A stretch of 64,000 nucleotides of DNA from Nemertoderma westbladi (taxonomy: Eukaryota > Animalia > Xenacoelomorpha): the NCBI GenBank assembly GCA_032718475.1, contig JAUCBJ010007173.1:171916-235915 (forward strand). The letters are read 5' to 3'. A program made the translations under genes and the position numbers. The notes under the pieces were generated by a model. That model saw nothing but the letters and a program-made list of their open reading frames with translations, was not told the DNA's origin and made no database searches. Below are positions 2,816 to 46,303 of this stretch, piece by piece (positions within the stretch are counted from its first letter, which is position 1; each line of letters starts with the position of its first letter).

Positions 2816-2820
2816 ACATT

Positions 2821-13216: not shown

Positions 13217-13228
13217 CACACTGCGCCA
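13217..13228 (-). promoter_or_regulatory. Canonical tRNA primer-binding site TGGCGCAGT (tRNA-Ser-like)
   Basis: Begins with TGG directly after the 5' LTR. The tRNA identity is from recalled invertebrate tRNA-Ser 3' ends and was not checked. Confidence 0.8.
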
Positions 13229-14226: not shown

Positions 14227-15447
14227 TGTAAAAGCTTTTGCGGAATTGCCCGGTTATTTTCCCCGTAAAGTACTCTGTAGTTGGTTTAGCAGGCATAAAA
14301 GGCCGTGTCATTGCTGTACCGGTGTTTTTAGGGGACATAAAAGTTATTTCTTCTGTATGTGTACTTTGGAGGACATGATTAGCAATTCTATGACGCAACG
14401 CCCTAGATCCTCTTGAAACAGTGTCGTTACTATGACGACAGCTAACGGCTGAGCTTTACACGTGTAGCTTGCCCGGAGCCTTGCCTTGGTTCTTTGTTCT
14501 GCTCAGCTCAAAATGACGACATCTATCAGCTGTGTCCACGTGGAGCCTTTTGCCATTCGACCAATCAGAGATTCCCTCTTTGTTGTAAAAGCTGTACAGC
14601 AGAATTACAGGATTCAGTACTGACGTTTCCCCCACGCCTAGAACACCGGCCGGAGAATGTTTTCTGACATTAGAGCGTCTTTAATTATAAGATCATCAAA
14701 CGGTTATCACGGTTTTGCACCTCGGCATCTGATTAAGCATCCTGACGTAAACTGCTTTTCGCCGCATTATTTACTGCTATTTACTGTGTTGTTAATTGTA
14801 TCGTTCGTTTACTTATTATTATTGGGAAGAATATTGATAACGATCCGAAAACCCAATCTTCTTGATACACTAAGGTTAGAGAGACCAGTTACATATAACA
14901 ATTTGCGACATACATTATCGTGGTTTGTAGTGAGTTCAATGCTACTTAATAGGCCCTACAAATGTCGGTTGTTATTCTCTTTATATATGATTAAAATCAG
15001 TGAATGTCGGCAATTCAGTGTGCAGTTGTGTGCAATAGTCTGTGTGTGCTTGACCGAGTAACAAAGCATTTCCTAAAGAATGCACTTTGGTGATCTATAA
15101 GACATACTGTTGTGTATAGTGTAAGTCATAGCTCTGTTTAAATAGATAGAGCGCCACGTCCTAAAGGAACTGCTAATATTTCCCGAAAGTGAATAATATT
15201 CGTCAGAGATTATATATTAACGATCAATCGAATAGTACGGTAGGCCTGCACCGCAATCAAATTAAAGCATCCAAATCCAGTCTCCCGGGTATATCCAGCG
15301 GGTGAATGGTCGCGCACAGACTGGCTTTGGCTAATGTTAGAATTATTATAGGTGTTCAATACTTGTCATAGGCTGGAGTAGATTTATAACCTAGAAGACA
15401 TATAGATTTGGCGGGTTAAACTGCCTAAGGTCTTAAAAGCGCAAACA
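14227..15447 (+). repeat. 5' LTR (1221 bp); candidate TATA-like TGTAAAA ~14584 and initiator TTCAGT ~14614
   Basis: Direct repeat of 25835-27055. The promoter assignment is inferred from motif spacing. Confidence 0.95.
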
Positions 15448-15458
15448 ATAACCGTTTG
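15448..15458 (+). promoter_or_regulatory. Non-tRNA primer-binding site candidate, complementary to LTR 14697-14707
   Basis: ATAACCGTTTG is the exact reverse complement of CAAACGGTTAT; no TGG start. Confidence 0.75.
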
Positions 15459-16383: not shown

Positions 16384-17309
16384 GTTTATGCGATTATTCG
16401 CAACATTCATATCCCTAAGTTTATTCCTACAGTAATTGTGCTTGTTATATATACCGTTATAGTTAAATTAACCCCGGTACTACACGGGCTGCTTGGCGTA
16501 GGTAAAGACTGGTGATGTTGTGTACCGGTCACTCCAGCAGATGCCGTGGTTCTTTGGCTGTTCAAGTATTTTTAACTACTGATTATTTGTTGTACAAGTA
16601 CTTGTACCTAATTTAGGGTTTGGTGTACAGTGCTTTCCGAAAGTAATTAGCGTGTAGGCAGTGTATTGTGTTGTAAAGTGGTTAATAGGCACGTTGGATC
16701 TGGTAGTCCGCGGTAATTAACTTCTAGGTAGGAACACTCCGTGATACATAACGTAGTACCTATAGCGATACGGCTATAGGTCGTCAGACGGTGGTATTTT
16801 TCCTATCTGGACAACGCAGTATATTGACTACTGCTTTATTATTCTCAAATGCCGTAGTATCCTGTCAGTTGTAATAACCAGAAGTTCTAACAATTTGTTA
16901 GACTGGTTTGTAGTTTCCCTGTAAAATTAACCCTAAAAAATTCGTACGTAATATTTTTGTTGTGTTTAATTAGAGATTTAATCTCACCCGTATCGTAAGT
17001 AATTCGTAGATAAGTAACTTAGGAAGTAGAATTATTTGTTTTAGTGTCCAATAAGTAGCACTTCACTGAGAGCGCACAGCTTTTGTGTAGTGATTACTTC
17101 CCAGAAATAATAACATCTATTTCAATATTGTAACAAAACCCCTCATACGGGTACATATAAATCCACTAAATCTATTAATAAAATAGTAGGCCTGTTATAC
17201 AACACTTAGGTCTTAATATCAGTTGGACTGCTGCTCAAATAACGGTAATAAAGTGAGTAAAGTAACCAAGTAACCCCTAACATTCAGAAATTCAATTATT
17301 CTAAAATAA

Positions 17310-17620
17310 TTGACATACCGGTATTTACAATAGACTTATTATATTTATTCTATAAATTTAGGCTGAAATTATACCGGTATTCTGTAATTAATTCTAGTCC
17401 AGAATTATACTTATATCTACTATAAGTGTCAGCTGTATACCGGTATTCACGATAGGCCTATTATATATTTATATATATTTGTGCTAAAATTACATACTGG
17501 TATTCTGTGATAAATCTAGTCTGAAATAATACTTATGTATACTATAAGCATACCGGTATTCTAATATATTTTATATATATACCATGTTATACTGAGTAGC
17601 AGTATCGGTAATTAATTATT
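17310..17620. repeat. Degenerate AT-rich tandem repeats with an ATACCGGTAT palindrome about every 60 bp
   Basis: Motif copies near 17315, 17371, 17437, 17495 and 17550. Confidence 0.6.
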
Positions 17621-17698
17621 AGGCTAACAGTGATACTGAATTACTAGACTTACTTTAACTGTATTTATAGCCATAGGCATTCAACTGTGTAAACAAAC

Positions 17699-20600
17699 AT
17701 GTCAGACGCAACCCAATCACTGTCAGATAGTCTCTTAGAAAGTGTTAGAATGAGTATTAGACTTAGACAGCGTATTAAAAGGATCTGTGACCAAGATCAA
17801 AGTATAGAACATCCTAGATCCAAGTCTAAGTCACCTACTATTGTAAGAAAGGCCATCCCTACAGTAGTAGTGTCAGACCCTAAGGCTAGTAGAACACCGT
17901 AGGTCTATCATCGGCACTCGGGCCCAAGTCAAGCGGGATCAAGAAGCAGCTATCAAACAGCAGCAACATCCTAGCCAAGAACCTAGTTTTCAGCGGCCCG
18001 ATAGCTCCAGTAGTTCGGATACTGTTGAGCGGACGCCCGAACGCGGAGCGAAGATGGCGGATACGGTTTATGATGAAAGGCCAACCTATGAAGAATCAAC
18101 CGACGCCACTTCTTCTCAAGTGGAAAGCGAAGTGGAAAGCGAAGTGGAAAGCGAATTAACAGCAGCAGAGAAGCCGCGAACTAGAGACGCCATTGACATC
18201 TATCTGTCAGACTATCAGCGATTCCTAGGAGACGAAGAGTTGAGGAGACGACTGTCTGGACTTCGCCCTAATAGTGAAGGAACCAAGCTTGTGTTGGACT
18301 CAATCGATGCGGAAATGTTAGCTGCAAACCAAGCTAAATTTGATGAAAAACTCCGCCTCGCTAGAGTCCAAGAAGAACAAGTAAAGAAAAAACGGATAGA
18401 GGATCGAAAGGCAGCAGCAGTAGCAGCGGCAATGGCAGAAGCAGAAGTGGAAAGAAAGGCGGCAGCGGCAATGGCAATGGCAGTGGCAGAAGCAGAACGG
18501 AGAGCGTCTGAGGAGACTACCCAACTGGAGTTGGAAAATCTGCAAGAGACGCAAGACTGCATAAATAAACAGTTAACTGCTAGTCAAATGCAGATGATGA
18601 GTCGATCTACTCCCAAACGCCAAGAATACACATCATCGGAGGAAGGCGAAACCACCAATCCTGAAGGCGGAGGAAATAGATCTCGTCTAAGCAGGCGTAG
18701 AAAAACATCTCACCGTCACAAATTGCCTGATTTGCCCCCAGCTGTTAGAAGACAACTAGCTAGCACAGACTTAGGTAGTACAGAACCCACAGACCAAATT
18801 ATTAAGGTCAAAAGACTCCCCACGATAGTAGATGAGCCTGAAATAATTAGGCCTGTCGTTCCCAAAGCCACTCCTGTGCTAGAGACCCCTGTACTTCCAG
18901 AGCTTAACTCTAAATTCCCTCTACACAGTACTACACTGCCTGTACCCGGTAGAACAGTCCATGAGAATATCCCTGTCCTGGACGCTGAGAGAGAAATCAA
19001 AGATTTGTCTCCCGTCGTCCCGCGTCTGCCCGCTACAATGTTGGCGACTCCCGCTTCGGCGGTCGAGTGGGTAGAGGAGGGACGGCGGGGGATGAATCTC
19101 CTGCTCGGACAGATGCAGGAGACTGTCCACCAACTCAAGGGAACATTAAGGGAAAGTAGGGTAGAATTGCAAGAAGTGCAGCAAAGCATCGCGCTAGAAC
19201 GCGACAAATTAGTCAATATACAAAAGGGTATACCAATACCCCCTGTAACATAGTGTCAACCTGTTAGGTCTGAAGTATTACATGCGCAAGGTGTGGAGCC
19301 TACACGCATCTATACTGCTAGTGAAGTAGAAACTCCTATAGCAAACCCTATTAAGGGTGATTATAAACCTGTTGTTGATGATATTCCCTATAGACCTGAT
19401 AATAATCCGGGAAATTTATATACCGATAATTCGATATTAAATAACACGATGGCCCAAGAAAGCTTTACGCGTCAATGGCTAGAACAGAAGCCCGCCAAGC
19501 GGTCAAAGTGGGAGAAATCGTCAAATTCAATGGAGATGAGATGAAATGGTTACCTTTTAATGAATATTACAAAGATAGCATACAGAACTCTGTACTATCT
19601 AACGGAGAGAAACTTAGATTCCTCATCAAGTGCTTGGAAGGACCTCCCAAGTTAATGGCGTTAAAGTTTATTGGACATCCAGATGGATTAAGACAAGTTT
19701 GGGATACATTAAACATCAGGTATGGTAACAAGGATAACATAGCTAAGTATTTGTATGCAAAATTAGTAGCCCCCCGAAAGTTCCTTAGTAGCGGGATTAT
19801 AGAGTTTTCCGATGAGATTCAGGAGATCTGTAGACAATTGGATTGGTTAGGTAAGTCTCATGAATATCAGAGTTCCATGGTTATTGGAGCCATAGTCTCT
19901 ACTTTACCAAAGGGTGGAGTATGTACACGCTGGGACAAGAAAGTGTTGTATATGAATGAGCAGCAACGACGAGGCCCTACCATGGCTGATCTCATGTCCT
20001 TCTTAGATAGTGAAGTAAAATTACAACTCATAAAGCAGTCCAGAGAGAAAACATCGGAAAATAAGGTAAGTGAGAAACCCGTTTCTAGGAGAAGGGTAAC
20101 ACCAGTGTGTTATACTGACGACGGCGAAAGCCAAGCTTCTCAAGAAGAGGACAGCGGGAAAGACACAGCAAAATCTTACTATGACAACAAGACCTATAAA
20201 GACGTAAGTAAATATAAGTCTCGAACCAGTGACAGGAGAGAACAGGTAACAACAACTCCTCCTACATCTCCTAAGAGAATTCACGGAAGAAAGCCCGAAG
20301 AAAGAACGAGAGTGCATAACGTTACCCAAGGTAAAGTGAGTAACATCAAACCAAAATGTGCGCTGTGCGACGGGCCCCACCGTTTGAGTGTGTGTGCTGA
20401 ATTCCTAAAGAAATCCCTGGTAGACAGACGTGAAGTCATGTGGCATAAGCGGTTATGCTATAATTGCCTCAGACAAGGACACCAACGGCGAACCTGTTAC
20501 TCCGACGTAAAGTGTGCAAAGTGTGGTGCGAAACATCACATCTTGTTACACAGTGAATTCGAACGAAACAACCCGAGTCAGGTAAGTGAGCCCGAACTAC

Positions 20601-21790
20601 ATGTCCAATTCAGTGATGTAAATGACACTGATCAAGAATCTGAGATGGAAGGATTCTATACGGACGAATTCTCCGACGCCAACGAATCCTGTTACCTAAT
20701 AAATACCGCAGTGTATCGAGCACTTACGTATGAAAAGGACACCGACAATGAGTTCCCCCCAACTACCTTTGACAGACAACCATCTTGGAAACCTCCAACT
20801 TCCAACGTAGGAATCAGAGAATTTCCTGTAGTGCAGGTAAGAGTTCACGGTCCTAACAAAAGTTACATAGTGAACGCCCTCCTTGATTCCGGCAGCACAG
20901 GAACATTCATCGATCAAGAACTAGCCGAAGACATCTTTGCTGGACAACCCAAATTCCGAACTAAGTTGAATATGTCAGGAATTATGCAGGTTTGGAAATC
21001 TACCATAATGGCAGATTACTATGTAGGTGCGTTGTCCACCCCCCAGGATAAATTAGGAGAACAAAGTATAAGGTCAGTAAAAATGGTGGCTATAAAGAAC
21101 TTCGCTACTACCCAAGTAGAACCTTATAACTGGGACGAGGACGAGAGCATCCAGCAGCTTAAGATACCTCGATTCCACACAGATTATCCTGGAGTGCAAA
21201 TACTCATCGGCCAAAACGCGCATGAGGCGCTAGAGACATTGGAGAAACGGCCTGCTCAACCACAGCCACTACAAACCTATGCGGTAAGAACTAGAGTAGG
21301 TTGGTACTTCACTGGCCCTTCCCGTAGAACTCTCAAAGAGAGATTACCTCAAGAACAGGTATACCAAGTAAAGGAATGGGAAGTGGAGAGCAGTGAGGTG
21401 GACGACCCAACTGAGGGAACACCATACTCCTCAGATAATGACGATATTAACTCCAATGTAGATCAATGGAGACATTGCCTTGGGACGATTAATCCAACCG
21501 ATATTGCTTCCAGAGGAGCAACTCCTCAAGAACTGATAGATACTCCAGGCTGGTTAGGTGGATCCGACTTCTTAAGTAAAGAAGAAGAAGAATGGCCTCC
21601 TCATCTTACCACGGCGGAGATTAGACAGGCCAAGGGAGTGGAGAAAGTAACACAACAACTCAATAACCCAGCTGGTCGTTTATGTTTACTGGAAAGAGAC
21701 CGAAAACTGTCCGGAAACTATGGAAGGCAAGATACTCTTCCTACGACCACTTCCCTAATCCGACAAATATCTAGGGACTCCATAACGTAA
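17699..21790 (+). pseudogene. BEL Gag-protease polyprotein, broken by stops and frameshifts, fused to a short post-RNase H remnant
   Basis: KFNGDEMKWLPF...EKLRFLIKCLEGPP (Pao Gag), CALCDGPHRLSVC / CYNCLRQGH...C / CAKCGAKHH knuckles, ALLDSGS, RTRVGW, then a direct jump to QWRHCLGTINPTDIASRG. Confidence 0.9.
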
Positions 21791-23344
21791 TAACATATGG
21801 AGTGGGCGTGTGACTATATCATTTTATATTTGTTTTTATTTTATATTTATGTATGTATTATTATGTAATTTTATTATAATCGTTTTCTTTAATTTTATTT
21901 AGTAGAATGTTATTTTAGTGATTATTTAGTAGATTAGTGCAATATATTAGTGTTTATTACGTACGTAATTACTTATAATATATATTTAGTGCGACGGCGA
22001 GAAAATATTATTTTTTCTCTTTCCTTACTGTCCGTATCATATTACTAGAACGCCATCAAGATGGCTTTAAACGAACCTGTCTTACACAGACTCCAAGAAA
22101 CAGATGGGATTGGAAGATGCAAACCAAGAATGACTTGCATCAACCAAAAAACTGCCTCCCATCTAATGTAATACACATTCGCCTAGGCAAACAAATCATA
22201 ATCACAATTACTACGATGATGTGTGAAATGGTATCCATATCCGCAACCTGAGAAACGGCCCAAAAGAGCAGTTTATTCTGCGGAGGGGTCTTTTCTGTAT
22301 TAGATAAATAAAATAAAGAACACTATAATTACAGTATTTATACCTGATACATTCTCAGTTAGCCTAATAAAAACATCGGAGCAACCAATATAATGTACAT
22401 GTACAAGCATCCTATGAAAGTTTGTGAAATGTTCCCTTAAGTCTACCCAACAGCCGTTGGTACCCGGCTGGCAGCCACCCTGGTTCAGTTTTATGGTTTT
22501 GTTAGTTTAATCGACAGCTGTTGTAAACGTCCCAGATATACAAAACCTACTAAGCCTTTGCATTACAATTGAGCTTAGCCTAAGTTGATGACAGTATTAT
22601 AACGATAACAATTAGGCCCTATAGATACATACGATATATAAATGATGTACTGCTTGACATTACACTAACTGGCTGAATAGAGATAGAACTATAATAATAC
22701 GTTTGGCATTCTGTCAGATTTCAGTAGTAAGTAACCTCATAATAATTGCTAAATATCAATCACCTGAAAAACATTTCAAGCAAGGGAGTTGTGGGTATTT
22801 AATTTCGCGTTCAATAATGTTGAAAATATGCAAATATTTCGAATATCGCACTTCGAATCGTTCCCAACTTTTTTATTCAACAACTAGACAACAATTGATA
22901 AATACTTGCGTTTACAATTTTACAATGCATGCAAGTGGTTTCAAGCCATTTGGTGAACATACATAGTGAGTGATATAGTGACATATAATATAGTGATATA
23001 GGTAAATATATCCATCGTGTTTTTGCCAGCCTCAGCTTTAGACAAAAACTACCCAGTCTAAAGACAGGTTCGTTATAAATACGTGACTACAGTAAAATGA
23101 AATGTCCGTACTTATTAAAGTACAATAAAGCCACTACTATATTCAAGTATTATTGGTAGGCAGAGTATTAGGAATGCAAAGTTCAGATCCTCGTGTCTCG
23201 GCTAAACCAAGCTCTGGGTAGACCTTGGAAACGACTTGCCTCTTCACACTGACAGTGCTTCGTGCGATATTGCTCTCATACCATATATAATAATACATAT
23301 AGTAGCGTGATGTCCCTCTAACAGTAGCGTGAAACGCAAATAAA

Positions 23345-23660
23345 TCTGTTAAACCTTTTGACCATCTGTAATTCTAGTCGATTAAGATATCGCGGCACCC
23401 ACCGATATAGTTGAAAGACAAATTCTAGAATCAGTGGTTAACGTCCCCAGACGAGTTCTGGAATAAATTGGTGCCCATCTCAAATATTAATTATTTAATA
23501 TTTATAAATCTATAAATCAAAATCTGTAAAATTCAGATCCTTTAACAATTCTAGTCGATTAAGATATCGTAGCACTTACCGATACTCTTAAAAGACAATT
23601 TTCATAGAATTAAGGATCCTATGTCCCCAGACCTGCTCTGGAATCAAATTGTGTCAATTG
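23345..23660 (+). repeat. Two ~177-bp diverged direct repeats in the BEL 3' region
   Basis: AATTCTAGTCGATTAAGATATCG near 23370 and 23548; GTCCCCAGA...TCTGGAAT in both copies. Confidence 0.8.
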
Positions 23661-24464
23661 CACTATCAAATAATAAAATTTCAGGGAATAAATTTGAATT
23701 CATATTTTAATGAATTTAATAAATTGTCATTCTGTGCAATTTATAACATTCCCAAAATCCCATTAATTAATAGATCACGGGAGCGGAGATTCATCCTATT
23801 AAGTGTGTTAGAGTGTAAGAATCTCCCATGTATGAGTCAATAGCCGATAAAATTTATAAAATCATATATAAACGAGATATTGGACCATTAAAGAATTACT
23901 ATTAAATAGCATCCCAGATCTGTATGCATTGGAATTACCCTAATTCTACCGCTAGCTTTCCATAATGTCACCATAGTAACACCCACGCTAGAATTAGAAG
24001 CAAGTTAAAAAGAACAATAGAAAGCTTGCCCCATTGCATAGTAAGAAATAAATAGCGCACTGCTAGTATCCAAGGATACATAATAATAACGTGGCATTCT
24101 GGAAGGCACTGACTAACGGACAAATGGCCCGAGTGTGTGTAATTTGTGACAGTTGTGTGTGTGGAATTTGTGAGTTTATAGGCGAATGTTACTACTAAGG
24201 TGTGTTTACAGTAGCGAGTCGCAATTGTGAAAGTAACCCTAACTCTCCAGTAAGAACCTGAAGTGTATCTAAGCCTTTGGGACGGACAGTGGAGTGACTC
24301 GTGCTAGTGTCGTTGTCGTTGTGTAGCTACACGTTGGCGGAAAACACAGCGGCGACGATACATTTGCGCTGAGGCTCTTACACTGTCCGGGGGCTGATTG
24401 GGGTAGGCAGCGACGCTCGCTAGCCTAATTATAAGCTCATTATAATATTAATAAACTCATATAT

Positions 24465-25808
24465 AGCAGATATAACGGAGTTGATAGAAGATGGTCTTGG
24501 TATCGGGGAGCGATATACTCTACCTTTACAAGTGTTTGTTGATAGCTTGATACGCGGCGACGCTAGTCCAACTACTACGAAGGACGATGGTCGTTATATC
24601 GAACCGACGATTTCCTAGAAGCAACTTACGCGTGAATTGGACTATGGAAAATTCACCGCTCGCTACACGCATCGTAATAGTACGTATATGGACTTCTTAA
24701 CCATTGGCTATTCTATCGATTCACACGATACGGACTATGTCGAACATATATCCTACCCAGCGGAGTCGGAACGATAAACTGAAATTCGAATGCGAAAATT
24801 CTATTCGAAATCGACTCGAAAGAAAAGACATTTGAGAGACAAATGGACGCGGTAACTCTAACGTATATTTGGAATTCTTGATAGAAGCATTGCAACAACA
24901 AATAAATATCATCCGCGTTTCCCCTACCAGACGTGCGTCTTTGGTATTATTACGATAAATGCCCTAGACCCAACTAATAAACGGAAAGACATAAACATCC
25001 ACGGAAACCGAAACTTGTTCGACATATCACCTACGCTCGCGCGACTCAGACGATCCTTGAGTAAACCTACGATCATAGTTCCGGAATACTCGGTCAGACC
25101 ACCTCGTTCCTTGATTAGACCTCAGACTTTCGATTCTGATGGTATCCCGGATCCTCACGAGTTGTATTCACTGTTCAAAGATCTAGTGCTACCCTAACAA
25201 TTAATCGGTAACACTCCGGCAGCGAGCTCTAGCTAGCCGCCCATCTTACCTAGCCGTATTGGGACGTGGACACCTAATATCACCATTCAACCGTATGGTC
25301 GTCCCAGTTTAACGCGATACAACCCTTCATCAAGGTGAAGGAGAGCATTGTACGAAACGAGTTAAACGCTATTCTACAAAGATCAGAAAGGAAACCTGCG
25401 TTTGTTCAGATAAACGTAAGTTATAACAGCAAGTCCAAGCGGTAAACGAATTGGCTTATCTCAGTTCGATTGGGAAATCTTGAATCTCTAAGAAGATATC
25501 GAGCTTAGACAACCCTATTCTCTGCGAGAGTTTTGGACGAGCGTGTCCAACGACAAGCGGAGGAAAATCAGCTCGAGGAGAAGCAGATCGAAATGGACGA
25601 GACACTGACCGTAACCCTAAACCTTCTGATGCAATGGTATTGCACCCTTCACCCAGGAGTTATAGCCCTCCTAGTAAAGTGGCTCGCCCCAAAGAGAAAA
25701 GGACTCTTGCTAGTCTCAAGAAACTGCGTAAACGCCGTCCGCGCAAGAAAAACTAACTGTTTAGAGTATCTTTATATTTTAGAAACTGTGATTTTTTATA
25801 TTTTATAG
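24465..25808 (+). pseudogene. Possible decayed extra ORF of unknown family just before the 3' LTR
   Basis: Coding-like segments (ITELIEDGLGIG..., FDISPTLARLRR..., DERVQRQAEENQLEE...) separated by stops and frameshifts; no recognised motif. Confidence 0.4.
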
Positions 25809-25834
25809 ACTAAAATCCCATTTTCTGGGAGCGG

Positions 25835-27055
25835 TGTAAAAGCTTTTGCGGAATTGCCCGGTTATTTTCCCCGTAAAGTACTCTGTAGTTGGTTTAGCAG
25901 GCATAAAAGGCCGTGTCATTGCTGTACCGGTGTTTTTAGGGGACATAAAAGTTATTTCTTCTGTATGTGTACTTTGGAGGACATGATTAGCAATTCTATG
26001 ATGCAACGCCCTAGATCCTCTTGAAACAGTGTCGTTACTATGATGACAGCTAATGGCTGAGCTTTACACGTGTAGCTTGCCCGGAGCCTTGCCTTGGTTC
26101 TTTGTTCTGCTCAGCTCAAAATGACGACATCTATCAGCTGTGTCCACGTGGAGCCTTTTGCCATTCGACCAATCAGAGATTCCCTCTTTGTTGTAAAAGC
26201 TGTACAGCAGAATTACAGGATTCAGTACTGACGTTTCCCCCACGCCTAGAACACCGGCCGGGGAATGTTTTCTGATATTAGAGCGTCTTTAATTATAAGA
26301 TCATCAAACGGTTATCACGGTTTTGCACCTCGGCATCTGATTAAGCACCCTGACGTAAACTGCTTTTCGCCGCATTATTTACTGCTATTTACTGTGTTGT
26401 TAATTGTATCGTTCGTTTACTTATTATTATTGGGAAGAATATTGATAACGATCCGAAAACCCAATCTTCTTGATACACTAAGGTTAGAGAGACCGGTTAC
26501 ATATAACAATTTGCGACATACATTATCGTGGTTTGTAGTGAGTTCAATGCTACTTAATAGGCCCTACAAATGTCGGTTGTTATTCTCTTTATATATGATT
26601 AAAATCAGTGAATGTCGGCAATTCAGTGTGCAGTTGTGTGCAATAGTCTGTGTGTGCTTGACCGAGTAACAAAGCATTTCCTAAAGAATGCACTTTGGTG
26701 ATCTATAAGACATACTGTTGTGTATAGTGTAAGTCATAGCTCTGTTTAAATAGATAGAGCGCCACGTCCTAAAGGAACTGCTAATATTTCCCGAAAGTGA
26801 ATAATATTCGTCAGAGATTATATATTAACGATCAATCGAATAGTACGGTAGGCCTGCACCGCAATCAAATTAAAGCATCCAAATCCAGTCTCCCGGGTAT
26901 ATCCAGCGGGTGAATGGTCGCGCACAGACTGGCTTTGGCTAATGTTAGAATTATTATAGGTGTTCAATACTTGTCATAGGCTGGAGTAGATTTATAACCT
27001 AGAAGACATATAGATTTGGCGGGTTAAACTGCCAAAGGTCTTAAAAGCGCGAACA
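25835..27055 (+). repeat. 3' LTR (1221 bp)
   Basis: Direct repeat of 14227-15447. Confidence 0.95.
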
Positions 27056-31873: not shown

Positions 31874-34800
31874 CATAAATTCAGTTCTCCAAACTTCCCC
31901 CGAATGCACACTGTCACATAAATGCAGTTCACCAAAGTTCCCCCGAATCCATACTGTCACACGAATGCAGTTCACCAAACTTCCCCCGAATGCACACTGT
32001 CACACGAATGTAGTTCACCAAACTTTCCCCGAATGCAGACTGTCACATAAATGCAGTTCACCAAACTTCCCCCGAATGCACAATGTCACACGAATGCAGT
32101 TCACCAAATTTCCCCCGAATACACACTGTCACATAAATGCAGTTCACCAAACTTCCCCCGAATGCACAATGTCACACGAATGCAGTTCACCAAACTTCCC
32201 CCGAATGCACACTGTCACATAAATGCAGTTCACCAAATTTCCCCCGAATGCACACTGTCACACTAATGCAGTTCACCAAATTTCCCCCGAATGCACACTG
32301 TCACATAAATGCAGTTCACCAAACTTCCCCCGAATGCACACTGTCACACGGATGCAGTTCACCAAACTTCCCCCTAATGCACACTGTCAAACGAATGCAG
32401 TTCACCAAACTTCCCCCGAATGCACCCTGTCACATAAATGCAGTTCACCAAACTTCCCCCGAATGCACACTGTCACACGGATGCAGTTCACCAAACTTCT
32501 CCCGAATGCAGACTGTCACACGGATGCAGTTCACCAAACTTCCCCCGAATGCACACTGTCACACGGATGCAGTTCACCAAACTTCCCCCGAATGCACACT
32601 GTCACACGAATGCAGTTCACCAAACTTCCCTCGAATGCACACTGTCACATAAATGCAGTTCACCAAACCTCCCCCGAATGCACAATGTCACACGAATGCA
32701 GTTCACCAAACTTCCCCCGAATGCATACTGTCACATAAATGCAGTTCACCAAACCTCCTCCCTCGAATGCACAATGTCACACGGATGCAGTTCACCAAAT
32801 TTCCCCCGAATGCACACTGTCACATAAATGCAGTTCACCAAACTTCCCCCGAATGCACACTGTCACATAAATGCAGTTCACCAAACTTCCCCCGAATGCA
32901 CACTGTCACATAAATCCAGTTCACCAAACTTCCCCCGAATGCACACTGTCACATAAATGCAGTTCACCAAACCTCCCCCGAATGCACACTGTCACATAAA
33001 TGCAGTTCACCAAACCTCCCCCGAATGCACACTGTCACATAAATGCAGTTCACCAAATTTCCCCCGAATGCACACTGTCACATAAATGCAGTTCACCAAA
33101 CTTCCCCCGAATGCACACTGTCACATAAATGCAGTTCACCAAACCTCCCCCGAATGCACACTGTCACATAAATGCAGTTCACCAAATTTCCCCCGAATGC
33201 ACACTGTCACATAAATGCAGTTCACCAAACTTCCCCCGAATGCACACTGTCACATAAATGCAGTTCACCAAACTTCCCCCGAATGCACACTGTCACATAA
33301 ATCCAGTTCACCAAACCTCCCCCGAATGCACACTGTCACATAAATGCAGTTCACCAAACTTCCCCCGAATGCACACTGTCACACGGATGCAGTTCACCAA
33401 ACTTCCCCCGAATGCACACTGTCACATAAATGCAGTTCACCAAACTTCCCCCGAATGCACACTGTCACATAAATCCAGTTCACCAAACCTCCCCCGAATG
33501 CACACTGTCACATAAATGCAGTTCACCAAATTTCCCCCGAATGCACACTGTCACACGGATGCAGTTCACCAAACTTCCCCCGAATGCACACTGTCACATA
33601 AATGCAGTTCACCAAACTTCCCCCGAATGCACACTGTCACATAAATCCAGTTCACCAAACCTCCCCCGAATGCACACTGTCACATAAATGCAGTTCACCA
33701 AATTTCCCCCGAATGCACACTGTCACACGGATGCAGTTCACCAAACTTCCCCCGAATGCACACTGTCACATAAATGCAGTTCACCAAACCTCCCCCGAAT
33801 GCACACTGTCACATAAATGCAGTTCACCAAATTTCCCCCGAATGCACACTGTCACATAAATGCAGTTCACCAAACTTCCCCCGAATGCACACTGTCACAT
33901 AAATGCAGTTCACCAAACTTCCCCCGAATGCACACTGTCACATAAATCCAGTTCACCAAACCTCCCCCGAATGCACACTGTCACATAAATGCAGTTCACC
34001 AAACTTCCCCCGAATGCACACTGTCACACGGATGCAGTTCACCAAACTTCCCCCGAATGCACACTGTCACATAAATGCAGTTCACCAAACTTCCCCCGAA
34101 TGCACACTGTCACATAAATCCAGTTCACCAAACCTCCCCCGAATGCACACTGTCACATAAATGCAGTTCACCAAATTTCCCCCGAATGCACACTGTCACA
34201 CGGATGCAGTTCACCAAACTTCCCCCGAATGCACACTGTCACATAAATGCAGTTCACCAAACTTCCCCCGAATGCACACTGTCACATAAATCCAGTTCAC
34301 CAAACCTCCCCCGAATGCACACTGTCACATAAATGCAGTTCACCAAATTTCCCCCGAATGCACACTGTCACACGGATGCAGTTCACCAAACTTCCCCCGA
34401 ATGCACACTGTCACATAAATGCAGTTCACCAAACTTCCCCCGAATGCACACTGTCACATAAATCCAGTTCACCAAACCTCCCCCGAATGCACACTGTCAC
34501 ATAAATGCAGTTCACCAAATTTCCCCCGAATGCACACTGTCACACGGATGCAGTTCACCAAACTTCCCCCGAATGCACACTGTCACATAAATGCAGTTCA
34601 CCAAACTTCCCCCGAATGCACACTGTCACATAAATCCAGTTCACCAAACTTCCCCCGAATGCACACTGTCACATAAATCCAGTTCACCAAACCTCCCCCG
34701 AATGCACACTGTCACATAAATGCAGTTCACCAAATTTCCCCCGAATGCACACTGTCACACGGATGCAGTTCACCAAACTTCCCCCGAATGCACACTGTCA

Positions 34801-36566
34801 CATAAATGCAGTTCACCAAACTTCCCCCGAATGCACACTGTCACATAAATCCAGTTCACCAAACCTCCCCCGAATGCACACTGTCACATAAATGCAGTTC
34901 ACCAAATTTCCCCCGAATGCACACTGTCACATAAATCCAGTTCACCAAACCTCCCCCGAATGCACACTGTCACATAAATGCAGTTCACCAAATTTCCCCC
35001 GAATGCACACTGTCACACGGATGCAGTTCACCAAACTTCCCCCGAATGCACACTGTCACATAAATGCAGTTCACCAAACTTCCCCCGAATGCACACTGTC
35101 ACATAAATCCAGTTCACCAAACCTCCCCCGAATGCACACTGTCACATAAATGCAGTTCACCAAATTTCCCCCGAATGCACACTGTCACACGGATGCAGTT
35201 CACCAAACTTCCCCCGAATGCACACTGTCACATAAATGCAGTTCACCAAACTTCCCCCGAATGCACACTGTCACATAAATCCAGTTCACCAAACTTCCCC
35301 CGAATGCACACTGTCACATAAATCCAGTTCACCAAACCTCCCCCGAATGCACACTGTCACATAAATGCAGTTCACCAAATTTCCCCCGAATGCACACTGT
35401 CACACGGATGCAGTTCACCAAACTTCCCCCGAATGCACACTGTCACATAAATGCAGTTCACCAAACTTCCCCCGAATGCACACTGTCACATAAATCCAGT
35501 TCACCAAACCTCCCCCGAATGCACACTGTCACATAAATGCAGTTCACCAAATTTCCCCCGAATGCACACTGTCACACGGATGCAGTTCACCAAACTTCCC
35601 CCGAATGCACACTGTCACATAAATGCAGTTCACCAAACTTCCCCCGAATGCACACTGTCACATAAATCCAGTTCACCAAACCTCCCCCGAATGCACACTG
35701 TCACATAAATGCAGTTCACCAAACTTCCCCCGAATGCACACTGTCACATAAATCCAGTTCACCAAACCTCCCCCGAATGCACACTGTCACATAAATGCAG
35801 TTCACCAAACCTCCCCCGAATGCACACTGTCACATAAATGCAGTTCACCAAACTTCCCCCGAATGCACACTGTCACATAAATCCAGTTCACCAAACCTCC
35901 CCCGAATGCACACTGTCACATAAATGCAGTTCACCAAATTTCCCCCGAATGCACACTGTCACACGGATGCAGTTCACCAAACTTCCCCCGAATGCACACT
36001 GTCACATAAATGCAGTTCACCAAACTTCCCCCGAATGCACACTGTCACATAAATCCAGTTCACCAAACCTCCCCCGAATGCACACTGTCACATAAATGCA
36101 GTTCACCAAACTTCCCCCGAATGCACACTGTCACATAAATCCAGTTCACCAAACCTCCCCCGAATGCACACTGTCACATAAATGCAGTTCACCAAACCTC
36201 CCCCGAATGCACACTGTCACATAAATGCAGTTCACCAAATTTCCCCCGAATGCACACTGTCACATAAATGCAGTTCACCAAATTTCCCCCGAATGCACAC
36301 TGTCACATAAATGCAGTTCACCAAATTTCCCCCGAATGCACAATGTCACATAAATCCAGTTCACCAAACCTCCCCCGAATGCACACTGTCACATAAATGC
36401 AGTTCACCAAACCTCCCCCGAATGCACACTGTCACATAAATGCAGTTCACCAAATTTCCCCCGAATGCACACTGTCACATAAATGCAGTTCACCAAATTT
36501 CCCCCGAATGCACACTGTCACATAAATGCAGTTCACCAAATTTCCCCCGAATGCACAATGTCACAT
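31874..36566. repeat. 43-bp satellite array (~109 monomers) with a 172-bp higher-order period in the centre
   Basis: Monomer AATGCAGTTCACCAAACTTCCCCCGAATGCACACTGTCACATA. Variants recur every 172 bp (ORF-track starts 33903, 34075, 34247, 34419). Confidence 0.97.
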
Positions 36567-37605: not shown

Positions 37606-37804
37606 TTTTAATAATTTCATAATTTAAATTAATAATAATTTTAAACAAGGAGGGGGTACCACCCCCCCCCCCCCCCCCCTTAACAATAACCGAAGTTGTT
37701 TCCCTTGCTTTTTACCAAAAACTATTTAGACTTAGGATAACCCCTATAGAGTTTACAATAGACCCGTGAAGTCAAATCACAATTTTCAAAATTTATTGTC
37801 AAAA

Positions 37805-38296
37805 TTGATGTGTACCAACATCTGTGAGTACTCACATTATTTGTGTGTACCAACATCTGTGAGTACTCACATTATTGATGTGTACAAACATCTGTGAGTA
37901 CTCACATTATTGATGTGTACCAACATCTGTGAGTACTCACATTATTGGTGTGTACCAACATCTGTGAGTACTCACATTATTGATGTGTACCAACATCTGT
38001 GAGTACTCACATTATTGATGTGTACCAACATCTGTGAGTACTCACATTATTGGTGTGTACCAACATCTGTGAGTACTCACATTATTGATGTGTACCAACA
38101 TCTGTGAGTACTCACATTATTGGTGTGTACCAACATCTGTGAGTACTCACATTATTGATGTGTACCAACATCTGTGAGTACTCACATTATTGATGTGTAC
38201 CAACATCTGTGAGTACTCACATTATTGATGTGTACCAACATCTGTGAGTACTCACATTATTGGTGTGTACCAACATCTGTGAGTACTCACATTATT
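37805..38296. repeat. 35-bp minisatellite, ~14 copies, each with the palindrome TGTGAGTACTCACA
   Basis: Unit TGATGTGTACCAACATCTGTGAGTACTCACATTAT; no unique spacers. Confidence 0.95.
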
Positions 38297-38713: not shown

Positions 38714-39275
38714 TGTGACGGGATCCACCAAGGATCCCGATTTATCCGGTTGGTTTCTAATCTACGGTCCCCGCCGTGCGTAATGTAAAAGAGTTCCGGT
38801 GTTGTTGACTGATCGGTGTATATATAATATAGGGTATAATAGTATAAACACAGTAGAAGCTGATATAATGATAAAGTGGGTGAATACCGGTAATGCATTG
38901 AACGGTGATGGTGGCAGTGGACGGAGACGTGATTAGAGTTCCGTTACTACCCTAACCTACTGACTTACTAAGTGAATGGGATAATATGATGACTGGTAAT
39001 ATATATTGCACGGTTGGCCACGTGGTGTTACTCAGTCGATGCTTTCCCCCCATTGGCTAATATCCTACTTGTCACCCTTTTGCCCCCCTCTGAAGTGCTT
39101 CCCTTCGCCCTTGCTATTCTCTCTCTGTCAGGGGTGTGGCCCCTGACCCCTATTGTGTGTTTCTCCTTCCCACTTTATTGGGGTGACACGAGGTTGGGTA
39201 ATCAACCTCGTGCTCCCAATATTGCTTAACGGCTTACTTTATGGGTTTGTGTTAGCGGAATTGGATAAGCTAACA
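38714..39275 (-). repeat. 3' LTR
   Basis: Direct repeat of 45601-46163, adjacent to the PPT. Confidence 0.95.
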
Positions 39276-39805
39276 CTCCCCCCCATGCTATCTTCCCGGT
39301 AAGAAGATAGCATCCAACTAAAGTGCGCTACAATTCCGCTGGATCCCGATCTAGTATCGGGTGTGGGGTGGGTCTATTTTCTTTCGGAGCCGGCTTTCCA
39401 GGCCGCTCCCTATGGGTATGATGTCACTACCCTCTGGCGTCTCGTGTCGGGCCGATCGTGCGCTTCTCTCACACAATTTTTGTTTCCCCAACACTCTCAC
39501 CACTCTAACTCCGCTCTCTGACTCAACTCGCTCTTGCCCTCTCCCCACACCTGAATCGCACACTTCTCTCTCGCCAACAGTTCCTTCCACTATCTCCTCT
39601 CTACTCCCTGCCACTCTCTAAGGCCCTAATCTCTAATGCTACCCCTGTGCTATCATACTATCTACCCACTGCTTACTTGCTAACTATCTAACTTCTCTAA
39701 CTCTAACTAACTCCTAACTCTACTAACTACTAACTCTACTCTCTGCTAAGTCTACTAACTCTTTCCTAACTCTGACTAAAACCCTCTAACTAACTCTACC
39801 TCTAT

Positions 39806-40220
39806 CTACGTGGCGCTAACGGTGCCCACAACCACAACCGGTACTACGTACCCTCTTACTAACTCTACCTCCATCTACGTGGCGCTAACGGTGCCCACAA
39901 CCACTCTACTACTGCTTCTACTCTGCTACTATCTTTCTAACTCTACTTAGTCTACTCCTTTCTACTCTCTACGTGGCGCTTGCGGTGCCCACAACCACTC
40001 TGCTTACTACTAACTTCCGTCTACGTGGCGCTTGCGGTGCCCACAACCACTCTCTCCTACTACTTTCTACGTGGCGCTTCCGGTGCCCACAACCTCTCTC
40101 TTACTACTTTCTACGTGGCGCTTCCGGTGCCCACGACCCCCCTACTACTACTCCTTTCTACGTGGCGCTTCCGGTGCCCACGACCCCCCTACTACTACTC
40201 GTGGCATGACAACATGCCAC
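39806..40220. repeat. Array of 7+1 conserved ~25-bp hairpin motifs with variable CT-rich spacers
   Basis: CTACGTGGCGCT(AAC/TGC/TCC)GGTGCCCAC at 39806, 39875, 39969, 40021, 40067, 40111 and 40158; variant GTGGCATGACAACATGCCAC at 40201. Confidence 0.85.
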
Positions 40221-40416: not shown

Positions 40417-43400
40417 CTAACTAGGGCGATTCTTCCAACAGGCACTCTCCCACTGTTGCTCTTGTAGGTCCTGTAGGATTCGCCGCACTCTCTTCGCCAA
40501 TTCCATCTCACCAGGAATTGGTTCTCCCTCTTCTGCCACCCTGAAATTGGGTCTCTCCGCCGCCTTCTTAACTTCCTCCTCTCTTGGCATCAAAATGCCA
40601 CCTCCTTCCTTGTTATCTCCCAGCGGCAGAATGAATAGAAAGTGAAAGAACAGGCAAAACAGAAGGTACGATAATAGACCTATCCCTTTCCATCCTGTCT
40701 TCCTTCTCGACTTCCCCCTTGTCGGTATGCCTCCAAACCGGACTGGCGTCTCTTCCGGACACTCCTTTGGACACTCCTCCGGACTATTGTCCCCCTGACA
40801 CTCCACCGGATACTCTTCTGGAGTGTTGTCCTCCGGACACCTCGCCATCCGCTCCTCTCCATCTCCATACCGATGCTTGCTGGGAAATCCACTCTCCTCC
40901 GCCAATTCTCCTGGTTCTACTTCCCTGTCTGGCTCTACTATCTCCTCCGGCTTCTTGTCTTCGTCCTCTGTGTCTGCGGTGCCTGGTAACATGCACCCTG
41001 ATGTCTCTGTCACACTGCATGGGATCTTGGTTTTAACTGGGCCGCTAAGCGTCCATCCGAACGGCGTGAGGATCGCCGTAGGGTCCCGCTGCCTGTCTTC
41101 GCCGAAGACCGTCCGTGTTCTCTCGTGGGCCGTCGGGCAGTCCATTCCTACTATAATGGACACCTTCCTAACGTCCACCTTTGGTATTGAGAAATCGATA
41201 CCGTCCAGGAATCTATACTGCTCGACCTCAATGTTGGTTGGTCGCCTGGCGTTGATATTTATCGATTCTATGATGTGGATGGGGTCGATCGTCGCCCCAT
41301 AGTCGCATCCCGGTGCAATCGCTGCTATCATGCACCGCCCCGTCCTCGTCTCCAGGACCTCATCTTTACTCGAGACGGTAGTTACCGCCATTCTATTCGG
41401 CCTCGTCTTTAGCCCTATCTCTTCGGCCACCCAGTTCTCCACCAGCGTGAAGGCTGCTCCGCTGTCGACCAGCATTAATGTCGTTACTGATCGACTGCCC
41501 TCTCCTGATATCTTTACTGGTACTACCCCGAGTAGTACTTTTCTCTTCTTCTCCTCTTCTGTCATGCTTGTAGCCATTGTTTGGCCTCCAGTCTCCTCCT
41601 CTCTTGCTGCTGTTTCTCTACACTCTCCGGGTCTGTGTCCTTCTACCACACATTGATGACATAGTCCATTTGCGTCTGTGTAGGCTATACGATCTTGTTT
41701 GGGCAACGCTTGCCAGTGCTTACAACTCCTGGTCTTATGGGTTCCGTCCCGGTGTAATTGACATTCGAATCCTGGATTATAGCGTTCCCTGTATAGTCCC
41801 TCACGTATGGCGCGTAGGTTTATATGTACCAATTTAGTGTTTTGGTTGTCTGTACTCGGCCTACTGGGTATATTGGGATTGTGTTTATTTATGGTGCTAT
41901 TTTCTTTCTGTCCCTGCCACGGTGTGGCCCTACTCCCAGCTAACTGTGGGCTTGTAGCCCCCTGTGTGGCCGCATGTGGTAGCGACTCTCTTACTCTTGA
42001 GAATGGATCCGTCGGATTATGTTCGGGTCCAGGCCTGTTGTATTCTGTCTTTGGTGCCTTCCCCAAACTATCCTCACTATAGACTGGGTCTGTAATTAAT
42101 TCGGCTTCATAGTTTAGGAAGCTCGACATTTCTTCTAGGCCCGGTTCCGCACCTTTCTTCTCTCGAGTGGAGAAGGCGATCTTCCTCCACTTTCTCCGCA
42201 GCCAGATCGGGAGTGCCTGCGCTATCGTGGTGATGTTGTTAGACGCGTTGAGTTCGTATGGTGCGCCTAGCGTCTTCAGTACGATTAACGCCTTCTCGAC
42301 CTTATTCGCAAAGGTCTTTATGCTAACGGGATTATCCTGTAGGCCATCCAATGTTATGCCTCTCAGGGTCTGCCGGATGATCTTGGCTGGGTGCCCGTAC
42401 TCCCTATCTAACGCCCGCCATGCTGTCGTGAAGCCGCCCTCGATGCCCTGGTATTGCCTCACGATGTCGTATGCTGGGCCTCCTGTATATACTTGCAGAT
42501 ATTTTAGGCACTCCGCCTGCGTCAAGTTCTTACTTAATATCTCGTTGCTGTACATGCGCCGAAACTGCAGGTATTCTTCCGGCCTACTTCCGTCAAATTT
42601 AAATGGCTCGACTGGTGGTAACTCGATCCTGGTCTTTAATGCATCGATTAATGTGGCCATTCCCATCGCTTGCGCTTCCAATGGGTTCGATGGATGTTGT
42701 ACAGACTCTCCTATTGGGTGCGGTCCATTCGTCCTATCTGTTGTTGATTTTATTTGTTGCGTCGGATATATCATTGGGGGTAACGGCCCCCTCCATATTT
42801 CCGTGTCGCACGACCTATTCTCGTCCAAGGGGTTCGATGTTCTTGCTCCTATTGGGGTATATTGTTGATATTGTAATGGGGGAATGTCACCCTGTCCCCC
42901 CCCCCACCACCGGTATGTTTGGTACTGGGGTTGATGTTAATATATTGGGGCCCATACATCTATCTACAATAACTCTCCCCTCCCCTGGATATATGTTATG
43001 TCCCTGTGTATTATAGTCATGCTGCTGTACCGATATAGGCCTACCTACCTCTCGCCTACCTACCGGTATGTACTCCACGACTTCCGGGTTTAATCCCGTC
43101 GTTCGCGCTACCCTATCGCCTACTCTATCTCTCCCAGCATGGCCTATAATAGTATGTGCAGTAAGGCCTACAGTATGTCCTGCAGTCTGCATGTGCCCTT
43201 CCGAACCGCAGTTTATTCTTCGCGAATCTCGAATCTCCCCGCAACTACCGTACTCTCGATCGGCAGCTATATCACGTCGGGAAGTTTCCCTTCGATCCCC
43301 TATCCTGCTCTCGTCTTCGTATCGGTACGTCCTGTACCCGTCTCCTGGCGTGCGGTGCGTTTCTCCGGGGCGACGGCAATCTCCCGAAGTTCGACCCCAC

Positions 43401-45520
43401 TGACTCCCTAACTCCATCTCTACTATCGACGGCTCGCTATCCGTCCTCGCTCTCCGGTTGCTCCTAGCAACGACTCTTCTATTATCTTCCCTTCTTCTCT
43501 CTTTGACCTCTCGGTTAAACTCTACTAATCTTCTTCTATCTTCGATCTCTCTGTTAAACTCTACTAATCTTCTTCTATCTTCGACCTCTCTATTAAACTC
43601 TACTAATCTTCTCTCTTCTGACTGGGCTCGACGTTCCGTCGCCCGCCCTCTCGCGACGTCAACCTGTCTCTCTCTGCTCGATCGCACGCCGCTGGGGATA
43701 CTCGCAATCCCCCTATTACTCTCTATCGCCGGGTGTTGCGGTGTACCTAATTCGGCCCGCGCATTATCCACCGACGCCTGTGGGACACTCTCTGCCCCCC
43801 CTCTCTCGCTACTAATCTCTCGTGGTGGGGCGCCCGTAGCCCCCCCCCCCCACCCGCCACTTCTAACTTCACTATCTCTTACTACACTTCTGCATCCCTC
43901 TTGTCGGACATTCTCTACCTCCCCCCTCTCGCCACTAATCTTCCGTGATGAGGCTCCTGTAGCCCCCCCTCACTCGCCACATCTAACTTCACTATCTCTT
44001 ACTCCACTTCTACACCCTTCTCTAGTCGACACACTATCTCTACTACGGCTGGGTCTATTCACCCCCGCCTCTCTCTCTACTACTGCGAGGCCTACCAGGC
44101 CCACCTCGGGTTGGCTCAACCCCGCTACCTCCTGCCTACCAACTGCGTGGCCTACTAGGCCGCCGTCGGGTTGGCTCAAGCCCGCCACTTCCTGCCTACT
44201 AACTACGTGGCCTACCAGGCCGCCGTCTGTCGGGCTATACATGTCTGGCGCGTTAACATCAATAGCACCACTCCCAATATTATTTGTTAAATCAATTAAA
44301 TTATTAGAATTTGAAACGGGATTATTTAAATTATTTAAATTAGAGTTGTTATTATTTTCAAAATTTAAATTATTATTCGAATTATTTGAATTATTCTGAA
44401 TATTTGAATTAATATTATTATTTGAATTTAAACTTAAACCACTACTACCAGGTGAAATATTTCCTGTAATAAAGGGATTAGGGTTATTTACTACGGTACT
44501 ATTAATACCAACATTTCCTAACGTACTACTACTACCCCCCTCGCCCGTACGGCTACTGTACGTGTACCGCACGCTCTGTTCTCTTGCCTCACGCTCTTTG
44601 CGTTCACTCTCTTGCTCCTTCCCTCTCCCCATTATCCGGTCTAATTCTTTCACCCTTAATTTATATGCCAGATTTATCTTCCGCATCCGTCTTTCTTTTG
44701 CGGAGGATGTAGCAGACTTATCGGTTGTGACGGATTCCCGCCGCCCCTCCGTCCTACTAACTTTCCCCCGCCCTCCGGGGTTCTCGCTGACCGACGAGAC
44801 CGAATCCTCGGAGCTAGTCTCGGATTCGCCCTCGTGCGGTCCCGCCCAACCCACTAACTTAACTTCCCTGGCATCGACTAAGTATGGCCCTATGTACACG
44901 ACACCAGGCCCCATACCCCTACGTTCCCATAGCCCAAACAGTTCGATGGCAACCCCTCTCGCTCTCTCGCTGGCTAGTTCTCCCTGCCCAGAACGCACTA
45001 GTTAATCAAAGTATCTGTTCGACTCACCTAGTCGTCTACTCAACTTCACCTGGTCTATCTCAGCCCCTCCTTTGGCTTCCTTCAGTTGCTCCCGGGTCGC
45101 GGCGTAGGCTCGTCGAAGTCGATCGGAAACCCCGACGTCCTCGTCGCCGACCTCTCCTCCATCTCTCCGGGTCCGACGTCGTACCGGTGGCCCCACCGTC
45201 GCCATTCCGGTGGGCCGTCCGTCGCCCTCGGCCTGTGGCTGGCCGGCGACATCGGTACGTCGACCCTCGCTCCGCGTCGACTCGTCTCTCTCCTCTCCCG
45301 TCTCACTCTCTCCTCTACTCGACTCGCTCTCTCCTCGTAGATGACCCCCCACATCTTGGTTCGCCGGGTTGCTCGTTATCGACGTGGCGTTAACCGGCGT
45401 CGACGTGGTCGACGTAGCATCAACCGGTGTCGTGGGTCCGTATCGTCTCGTCGCGGCCTCGCGGATCGTTAGATCGTCGTCCGGGGTCCGCGGCGGTGTT
45501 GTCTTTCCTTCCCTACTCAT
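40417..45520 (-). pseudogene. BEL Gag-protease polyprotein (~1700 codons) with two in-frame stops (45002-45004, 43970-43972) and a frameshift at the homopolymer near 42900
   Basis: ORFs 45002-45520, 43970-44998 and 42887-43771 share one frame. 40417-42828 carries PFKFDG...CLKYLQVYTGGPA, Cys/His knuckles, LVDSGA and LTPFGW. Confidence 0.9.
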
Positions 45521-45589
45521 CTTTGGCCTTTGGTCGGTGGCTGACAGTCAGTTTCTTCCTTTACTTTTAGGGTAGCTGTGGATCTAATC

Positions 45590-45600
45590 ACTCTAATCAC
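45590..45600 (-). promoter_or_regulatory. Non-tRNA primer-binding site candidate, complementary to LTR 45816-45826
   Basis: Element-sense GTGATTAGAGT pairs exactly with element-sense ACTCTAATCAC in the LTR. Confidence 0.75.
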
Positions 45601-46163
45601 TGTGACGGGATCCACCAAGGATCCCGATTTATCCGGTTGGTTTCTAATCTACGGTCCCCGCCGTGCGTAATGTAAAAGAGTTCCGGTGTTGTTGACTGAT
45701 CGGTGTATATATAATATAGGGTATAATAGTATAAACACAGTAGAAGCTGATATAATGATAAAGTGGGTGAATACCGGTAATGCATTGAACGGTGATGGTG
45801 GCAGTGGACGGAGACGTGATTAGAGTTCCGTTACTACCCTAACTAACTGACTTACTAAGTGAATGGGATAATATGATGACTGGTAATATATATTGCACGG
45901 TTGGCCACGTGGTGTTACTCAGTCGATGCTTTCCCCCCATTGGCTAATATCCTACTTGTCACCCTTTTGCCCCCCTCTGAAGTGCTTCCCTTCGCCCTTG
46001 CTATTCTCTCTCTGTCAGGGGTGTGGCCCCTGACCCCTATTGTGTGTTTCTCCTTCCCACTTTATTGGGGTGACACGAGGTTGGGTAATCAACCTCGTGA
46101 CCCCCAAAATTGCTTAACGGCTTACTTTATGGGTTTGTGTTAGCGGAATTGGATAAGCTAACA
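45601..46163 (-). repeat. 5' LTR; candidate initiator TCAGTT ~45850 on the minus strand
   Basis: Direct repeat of 38714-39275. Confidence 0.95.
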
Positions 46164-46303
46164 AATTGGGCCTCCAACAAACCTAACATCATGGATATTG
46201 AATATCTTCAAATGATATTGGTTGCTGTTTCTATAGTAACAGAGAAAGTTATAAAGGTTTCATCTATGGATTGTTTGCACTCAAATACCATGGTTACTTT
46301 TAG

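Follow-up and report, generated by a model that had tools for sequence, protein, structure and literature searches.

Putative self-priming of reverse transcription in a BEL/Pao retrotransposon of Nemertoderma westbladi and in relatives with a predicted splice-junction primer

The retrotransposon Tf1 starts reverse transcription with an 11-nt self-primer that is freed by an RNase H cut (PMC7175516), and self-priming is also described for Tj1 (PMC4600332). A Tf1-type pretzel structure (bioRxiv 10.1101/2022.12.06.519325), the control of the start site in Tf2 (PMC5341516) and hairpin priming in chromoviruses (PMC3601003) are the subjects of further reports, and self-priming has been predicted in plants for the Tcn1 Gypsy and TAR Copia elements (PMC6317226); all of these statements are drawn from the accessible portions of the cited accounts. 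The Belpaoviridae are listed by the ICTV as primed by a host tRNA that binds to an 18-nt primer-binding site (PBS) for tRNA-Arg or tRNA-Gly, and the replication of BEL/Pao elements is considered poorly understood in the same profile (PMC8742986). In the openly accessible literature searched, we found no published account of self-priming in BEL/Pao; a discussion of priming was not found in the accessible portions of three papers on these elements (PMC3118150, PMC554778, PMC6238403), and that of a further one (PMC8220671) contains a general figure only.

Here, we analyze a stretch of 64,000 nt (the window) from Nemertoderma westbladi (contig JAUCBJ010007173.1, positions 171,916-235,915, forward strand), in which two BEL/Pao elements, A and B, were found by self-comparison (Table 1). 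Element B is a young, cut-down BEL/Pao element, the 5' and 3' LTRs of which differ at five positions. It bears the traits of this superfamily: a DUF1759 gag followed by a protease, TG...CA LTRs, a target-site duplication and a polypurine tract. Its gag (PF03564, E 1.3e-11) and protease (PF13650, E 8.5e-6) are recognized by Pfam, and the region encoding them is broken by stops near 45004 and 43972 and by a frame change near 42900. Neither a frame nor a Pfam match for reverse transcriptase (RT), RNase H or integrase was found within element B, which hence is a non-autonomous derivative. Its non-coding 3' region (39790-40200) holds repeats of 44-47 nt. Elsewhere in the window, a broken gag-protease relic (2820-5750, minus strand), 83-84% like element B, adjoins an inverted BEL RT fragment (4707-5661, plus strand). 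A protein homologue search returned nothing for the RT fragment and three weak matches for gag, and BEL relatives were absent from the viral contigs searched. The window also contains a 43-nt satellite of 109 copies (31874-36566) and a 35-nt array of 14 copies (37804-38296). At 1-2800 (minus strand), visual inspection points to a non-LTR reverse-transcriptase element in broken form, whose longest frame gave no Pfam match.

Table 1. Positions in the window of the elements and of the features discussed in the text.
Feature	Position	Strand	Remark
Element B, non-autonomous BEL/Pao LTR retrotransposon	46163-38714	minus	563-nt LTRs
Element B target-site duplication	46168-46164 and 38713-38709		CAATT
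Element B 5' LTR	45601..46163	minus	563 nt, TG...CA
Element B 3' LTR	38714..39275	minus	
Element B polypurine tract	39276..39284	minus	
Element B gag (DUF1759) and aspartic protease region	40417..45520	minus	
TATA-like box (45892-45887) and initiator-like TCACTT (45862-45857)	45857..45892	minus	predicted start ~45860
Most upstream LTR block	45845..45852	minus	partner 45553-45546
Upstream LTR block	45833..45842	minus	pairs with 45576-45567
3' part of putative self-primer	45816..45826	minus	LTR 338-348; predicted primer end 45816
Sequence just 3' of primer	45800..45815	minus	predicted partner of 45662-45647
G-rich U5 tract	45647..45662	minus	similar tract in loose ends of diverged copies
U5 terminal hairpin	45606..45626	minus	8 bp, 5 nt before PBS
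Element B PBS	45590..45600	minus	11 nt complementary to LTR, directly after LTR, no TGG
Second copy of 9-nt core	45583..45591	minus	polymorphic among close copies
Leader block	45567..45576	minus	pairs with 45842-45833
Leader block	45546..45553	minus	partner 45852-45845
Element A, BEL/Pao	14227-27055	plus	1221-nt LTRs
Element A LTR 11-mer	14697..14707	plus	complementary to own PBS
Element A PBS	15448..15458	plus	directly after 5' LTR, no TGG
Gypsy element	13438-8293	minus	
Gypsy tRNA-type PBS, internal control	13217..13228	minus	TGG directly after LTR

A preliminary description of the window had claimed an 11-nt pairing between the bases that follow the 5' LTR of element B and a segment inside this LTR, and the match is indeed perfect: the first 11 nt after the LTR (45600-45590) are reverse-complementary to 45826-45816 at every position. 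No spacer separates the terminal CA of the LTR from this site; the first 12 post-LTR bases contain no TGG, and the 18-nt tRNA PBS of the ICTV profile is absent. Among 5000 dinucleotide shuffles of the LTR (offsets 0-3), a single one reached a match of this length, and four of 5000 did so for the 11-nt match of element A. The Gypsy element, used as an internal control on the strength of a normal TGG PBS, does carry its TGG directly after the LTR at 13228, and its observed match is 3 nt. A second block claimed to extend the pairing was recovered as well (45575-45567 with 45842-45834), and an additional, third block lies collinear with it (45852-45845 with 45553-45546). Overall, the first 60 leader bases and LTR positions 308-361 form a duplex of -42.1 kcal/mol (z -4.05) that none of 200 shuffles equalled. 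Element A was said to display the same geometry; it shares the 11-nt core, but its loop measures 740 nt instead of the 215 nt in element B, and its wider duplex is not significant. The computed fold of element A varies with the chosen ends, giving pair probabilities from 0 to 1.0. Two donor motifs lie downstream of the 11-mer in its 1221-nt LTR, and a second, imperfect PBS-like copy is found about 70 nt into its leader.

The PBS core of element B had been described as duplicated, and at this locus it is (45600-45592 and 45591-45583), but the duplication is polymorphic in near-identical contigs and is not a feature of the family. In contigs from four coded DNA runs of the host species (at most three samples), one 9-mer is absent from near-identical contigs of runs X1 (one contig) and X2 (three contigs), which stem from one sample and make up all the depth there; both 9-mers are present in contigs of run X3 nearly identical to the leader of element B. 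Hence, bases 10 and 11 of the match are contributed by the second copy, and the non-duplicated core amounts to 9 nt. Some close copies pair over 9 nt only, a length reached by 29 of 5000 shuffles; this core continues past a 2-nt bulge into the upstream helices, and the duplex formed with the second copy only has a z of -4.31. These two bases begin the second copy and are also complementary to the LTR bases that come next. If 11 primer bases had been copied and the strand had then slipped in plus-strand transfer, precisely this arrangement would result; a plain duplication would produce it as well, one time in 16. One could attribute the match to chance, together with a 9-nt duplication that arose locally in a defective element, given that the duplication is polymorphic, that it adds two of the 11 pairs and that element B lacks an RT; the shuffle count for 9 nt alone and the second-copy duplex argue against this, as do the data from other animals presented below. 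Contigs of diverged family copies fall on U3, on block 45818-45857 and on the U5 end, with hardly any in between, and LTR ends are covered far more often than the internal leader, it being understood that contig depth over this region does not equal copy number. Primer variants occur in the family of element B at 45819, 45821 and 45825, on contigs too short for linking them to PBS variants.

When RNAs beginning at LTR position 302 or 313 and running through 70-110 leader bases were folded, the primer:PBS helix formed with a probability of 0.87-0.88, the upstream blocks being present in the folded RNA; other choices of the ends gave 0.22-0.99, with the low value of 0.22 coming from an RNA that starts at the primer itself and includes 110 nt of leader. 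The fold of element B has a z of -2.39 (2 of 100 shuffles), and in it the primer:PBS helix stacks on another one, in which the G-rich U5 tract pairs with the bases that directly follow the primer. This latter pairing had been proposed beforehand and is predicted at -15.7 kcal/mol in the register given then, but two other registers are better (-18.6 and -18.2 kcal/mol). The hairpin reported for the end of U5 is present at 45626-45606. An Rfam search of 45400-46200 yielded one chance-level match and no tRNA-like fold.

With respect to the transcription start, a TCAGTT initiator at ~45850 had been put forward; the TATA-like box at 45892 and TCACTT at 45862 would better fit a start near 45860. Across 18 families, no enrichment or peak of TATA motifs at a fixed distance from the primer was detected. 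The LTR of element B has no AATAAA downstream of the primer. A perfect splice-donor motif at 45850-45855 (LTR 309-314), 5 nt past the predicted start, resembles the situation in some spliced relatives and could serve a spliced gag message; as a donor for building the primer, LTR 309 was considered and rejected, there being no fitting acceptor.

As an outside test, an alignment of 32 BEL polyproteins, obtained by a representative search, was used as query for further BEL loci. This gave 133 loci. Metagenomes provided 78, which stem from the 80 best among 543 confirmed stretches; the remaining 55 (L079-L133) were on host contigs in prokaryote assemblies, many genomes deposited as bacterial or archaeal containing animal contigs with BEL elements as host contamination. 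A repeat on both sides was present in 51 of the 133 loci; 28 with a readable 5' LTR end were kept, and 23 were discarded since their repeat either extended beyond the contig or did not represent an LTR. Twelve of the 28 loci (6 families) possess a tRNA-type TGG site, none of which pairs with its own LTR. The other 16 loci have no contiguous own-LTR match longer than 8 nt. Under a strict rule (offset 0-3, perfect pairs, one LTR end corrected), 11 of these 16 pair over 10-15 nt across a predicted GT-AG junction in their own LTR, and each match beats all 35 control positions. A relaxed rule, all parts of which were set after the data had been seen (offset 0-5, one mismatch allowed, second LTR end corrected), raises this to 14 of the 16 non-tRNA loci (12 families), which pair over 8-15 nt with a GT-AG junction, 13 of them over at least 10 nt; each match was attained at 0 of 47 control positions, and none of the 12 tRNA-type loci has such a match. 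The two exceptions are L086, which is excluded by a single mismatch close to the end of the primer, and L101, the boundary of which is probably not an LTR boundary. In the sister families L079 and L080, two exon-1 primer positions differ and both PBS partner positions differ likewise in a compensatory fashion.

The proposal that tRNA-independent priming is shared within a BEL lineage thus finds support in the sequences, with own-LTR pairing in 14/16 non-tRNA loci against 0/12 tRNA-type loci, and the same comparison, together with the second-copy duplex, largely refutes the chance reading, which we regard as extremely improbable. Nine of 11 spliced loci have a single poly(A) signal in the LTR, situated 9-97 nt downstream of the acceptor, so that a repeat would be left for strand transfer after the cut. 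An open frame of at least 1800 aa was present in eight of the 18 self-pairing families examined; self-pairing is therefore not limited to defective copies. A blind scan of leaders found matches in 15 of the 75 loci that belong to the self-pairing clade vs. four of 35 outside it, the latter revealing that the scan has a background; it added six spliced matches (three new families) and two contiguous candidates. The latter, L009:122-283 and L026:226-402, are candidate intronless 11-nt self-primers with predicted LTR ends that stand among spliced families, a distribution that suggests repeated loss of the intron. The paired segment ends in AC or AT (ACT if the pairing is one base longer) in L001, L017, L021, L029, L030, L034, L040, L077, L079, L080, L088 and L092 and in elements A and B, possibly reflecting a conserved cut context.

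The location of the paired segments bears on the possibility that the leader pairs with the 3' LTR copy, circularizing the RNA for strand transfer or packaging, while another primer is used. The same LTR sequence is present at both ends of the RNA, and the 11-mer of element A might lie upstream of the start, given a TATA-like motif located 11 nt ahead of it. In every family, however, the paired segment sits 0-5 nt from the LTR end, where the tRNA sites are positioned as well (0-7 nt), no other primer site is present, and a helix that merely circularizes the RNA need not be built over a splice junction; we hold this explanation to be very unlikely.

A host tRNA fragment might alternatively act as primer in the style of half-tRNA Copia elements, the LTR pairing merely hiding or regulating the site. 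The ICTV states tRNA priming for the family (PMC8742986), and the PBS of the Copia element FunCo1, which is complementary to an internal part of tRNA-Lys according to the accessible portion of PMC5445492, resembles the site of element B minus one base. Yet no pairing longer than 5 nt was found between the PBS of element B and any of 31 tRNA sequences (11 types, among them tRNA-Lys(CTT)), a partial set that derives from other organisms than the host and does not contain the tRNA of the control elements. The likeness of the LTR segment of element B to tRNA-Lys is equalled by 34 of 400 control windows. Moreover, the non-tRNA sites differ from family to family, each tracking its own LTR, while the tRNA-type sites are nearly identical across hosts. 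Judged against this partial set and these sites, such a primer is unlikely for element B. A tRNA-derived origin of its primer region was assessed separately and rejected as not significant (tRNA-Lys 34/400, tRNA-Thr 4/400, among 11 types).

The kinship of the elements was evaluated by phylogenetic analysis. In an RT tree (FastTree), all spliced loci belong to one 80-row group (SH 96), from which defined tRNA-type loci are absent; both RT relic fragments of the window had long branches and inconsistent positions and were therefore not considered for placement. In a gag-protease tree based on 27 selected rows, element B nests among BEL loci and is united with L043, L027 and L070 and with the spliced loci L029 and L077 at 99/98, a grouping with which a FastTree analysis of 45 gag-protease rows agreed, and forcing element B among tRNA-type rows was rejected (AU p 0.034). 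For element A, membership of the self-pairing group is neither supported nor rejected (AU p 0.21; as sister of element B 0.17); both elements are long-branched (1.58 for element B), and some tRNA-type labels in the trees come from a blind motif scan. The gag of element A leans to the tRNA-type rows without support. Element B, on its long branch, thus shares its gag lineage with the splice-junction self-primer elements L029 and L077. Its own match is contiguous, and it has no splice-junction match, unlike its spliced relatives; the 5' LTR of its sister L043 is not readable. From these comparisons, element B looks like the intronless form of its splice-junction relatives.

From the complementarity, its position and the absence of TGG, all seen directly in element B, from the collinear extra helices of the computed fold and the same signature in related families, and by analogy with described self-primers, we consider it probable that the RNA of element B folds back on its PBS, is cut at the predicted position 45816, and primes minus-strand synthesis without a tRNA. 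Transcription would start near 45860, as judged by the promoter motifs, and the primer would then be a capped 5' fragment of 35-45 nt, compared with ~33 nt in the preliminary description, whose 5' part clamps the leader. RT might be supplied in trans by a coding family, and the RNase H of this partner would cut at 45816, following the Tf1 model. During plus-strand synthesis, about 11 nt of primer sequence would be written back into the PBS, so that primer and PBS stay in step; we propose that this copying accounts for the sharp length of 10-12 nt and for the covariation. In the relatives, the primer would be split by an LTR intron and assembled by splicing, and this intron may survive because LTR sequence upstream of the cut would be passed on by the 3' LTR copy. 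The group as a whole likely starts DNA copying with its own RNA.

The main rival to this fold-back in cis is an element-derived primer that acts in trans; another copy of the element, or a solo LTR, would supply it as an LTR transcript, short or spliced, or as a processed small RNA. Complementarity and covariation would fit it equally well, contigs cover LTR ends far more than the internal leader, and the 740-nt loop of element A folds unreliably in cis. Element B, on the other hand, does fold in cis in the computation, the loop being closed by a helix that follows immediately 3' of the primer end, and the Tf1 precedent acts in cis (PMC7175516, accessible portion); we view priming in trans as rather doubtful. 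Going beyond element B, we lean only slightly toward a wider scenario in which a large marine BEL/Pao lineage dropped tRNA priming in favor of a self-made primer usually built by the spliceosome, with element B having lost the intron and using a long capped primer, and its duplication being the footprint of copy-back. Self-priming is established for Tf1, and predictions of it exist for some Gypsy and Copia groups; its occurrence in BEL/Pao would make it a recurrent solution in all three LTR superfamilies, and a primer that exists only after splicing would link reverse transcription to host RNA processing. The finding provides exact RNA ends to seek and explains why PBS-based annotation misses such elements.

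When compared with known systems, element B matches the DUF1759 gag, protease, TG...CA LTRs and polypurine tract of the Belpaoviridae in the ICTV profile (PMC8742986) but differs from it in the absence of the 18-nt tRNA PBS, which is also missing from 16 of the 28 fetched loci. The half-tRNA Copia elements Osser, Bianca and FunCo1 and the fungal GalEa elements likewise have a PBS without TGG (PMC6317226, PMC5445492); in these elements, the site corresponds to an inner segment of a tRNA or to a local hairpin and not to the LTR, as far as the accessible portions of these sources describe. For the TAR, Houba and Osr-1 Copia elements and the Tcn1 Gypsy element, self-priming was predicted, as here, from an LTR-complementary PBS (PMC6317226), but they belong to other superfamilies and hosts, and the accessible portion of this report describes no splice-built primer. 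The closest resemblance is to Tf1, Tf2 and Tj1 of the Tf1/sushi group, which, in the accessible portions of their accounts, lack a tRNA site as well, pair about 11 post-LTR nt with their own LTR, and have helices flanking the junction (PMC7175516, PMC4600332, bioRxiv 10.1101/2022.12.06.519325). These are Ty3/gypsy chromoviruses, however, and the gag of element B is that of a BEL element, which places it outside this lineage. In element B, the predicted place of the 11-mer is about 35 nt into the transcript, whereas the Tf1 primer consists of the first 11 nt, and in the relatives of element B a predicted intron splits the primer. The three-duplex pretzel of Tf1, as far as it is described in the accessible portion of the source, uses LTR sequence downstream of the primer for its side duplexes; in the computed fold of element B, the leader pairs with the LTR upstream of the primer. 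Element B most likely works like Tf1 self-priming, as judged by sequence and analogy, yet stands outside the Tf1/sushi group.
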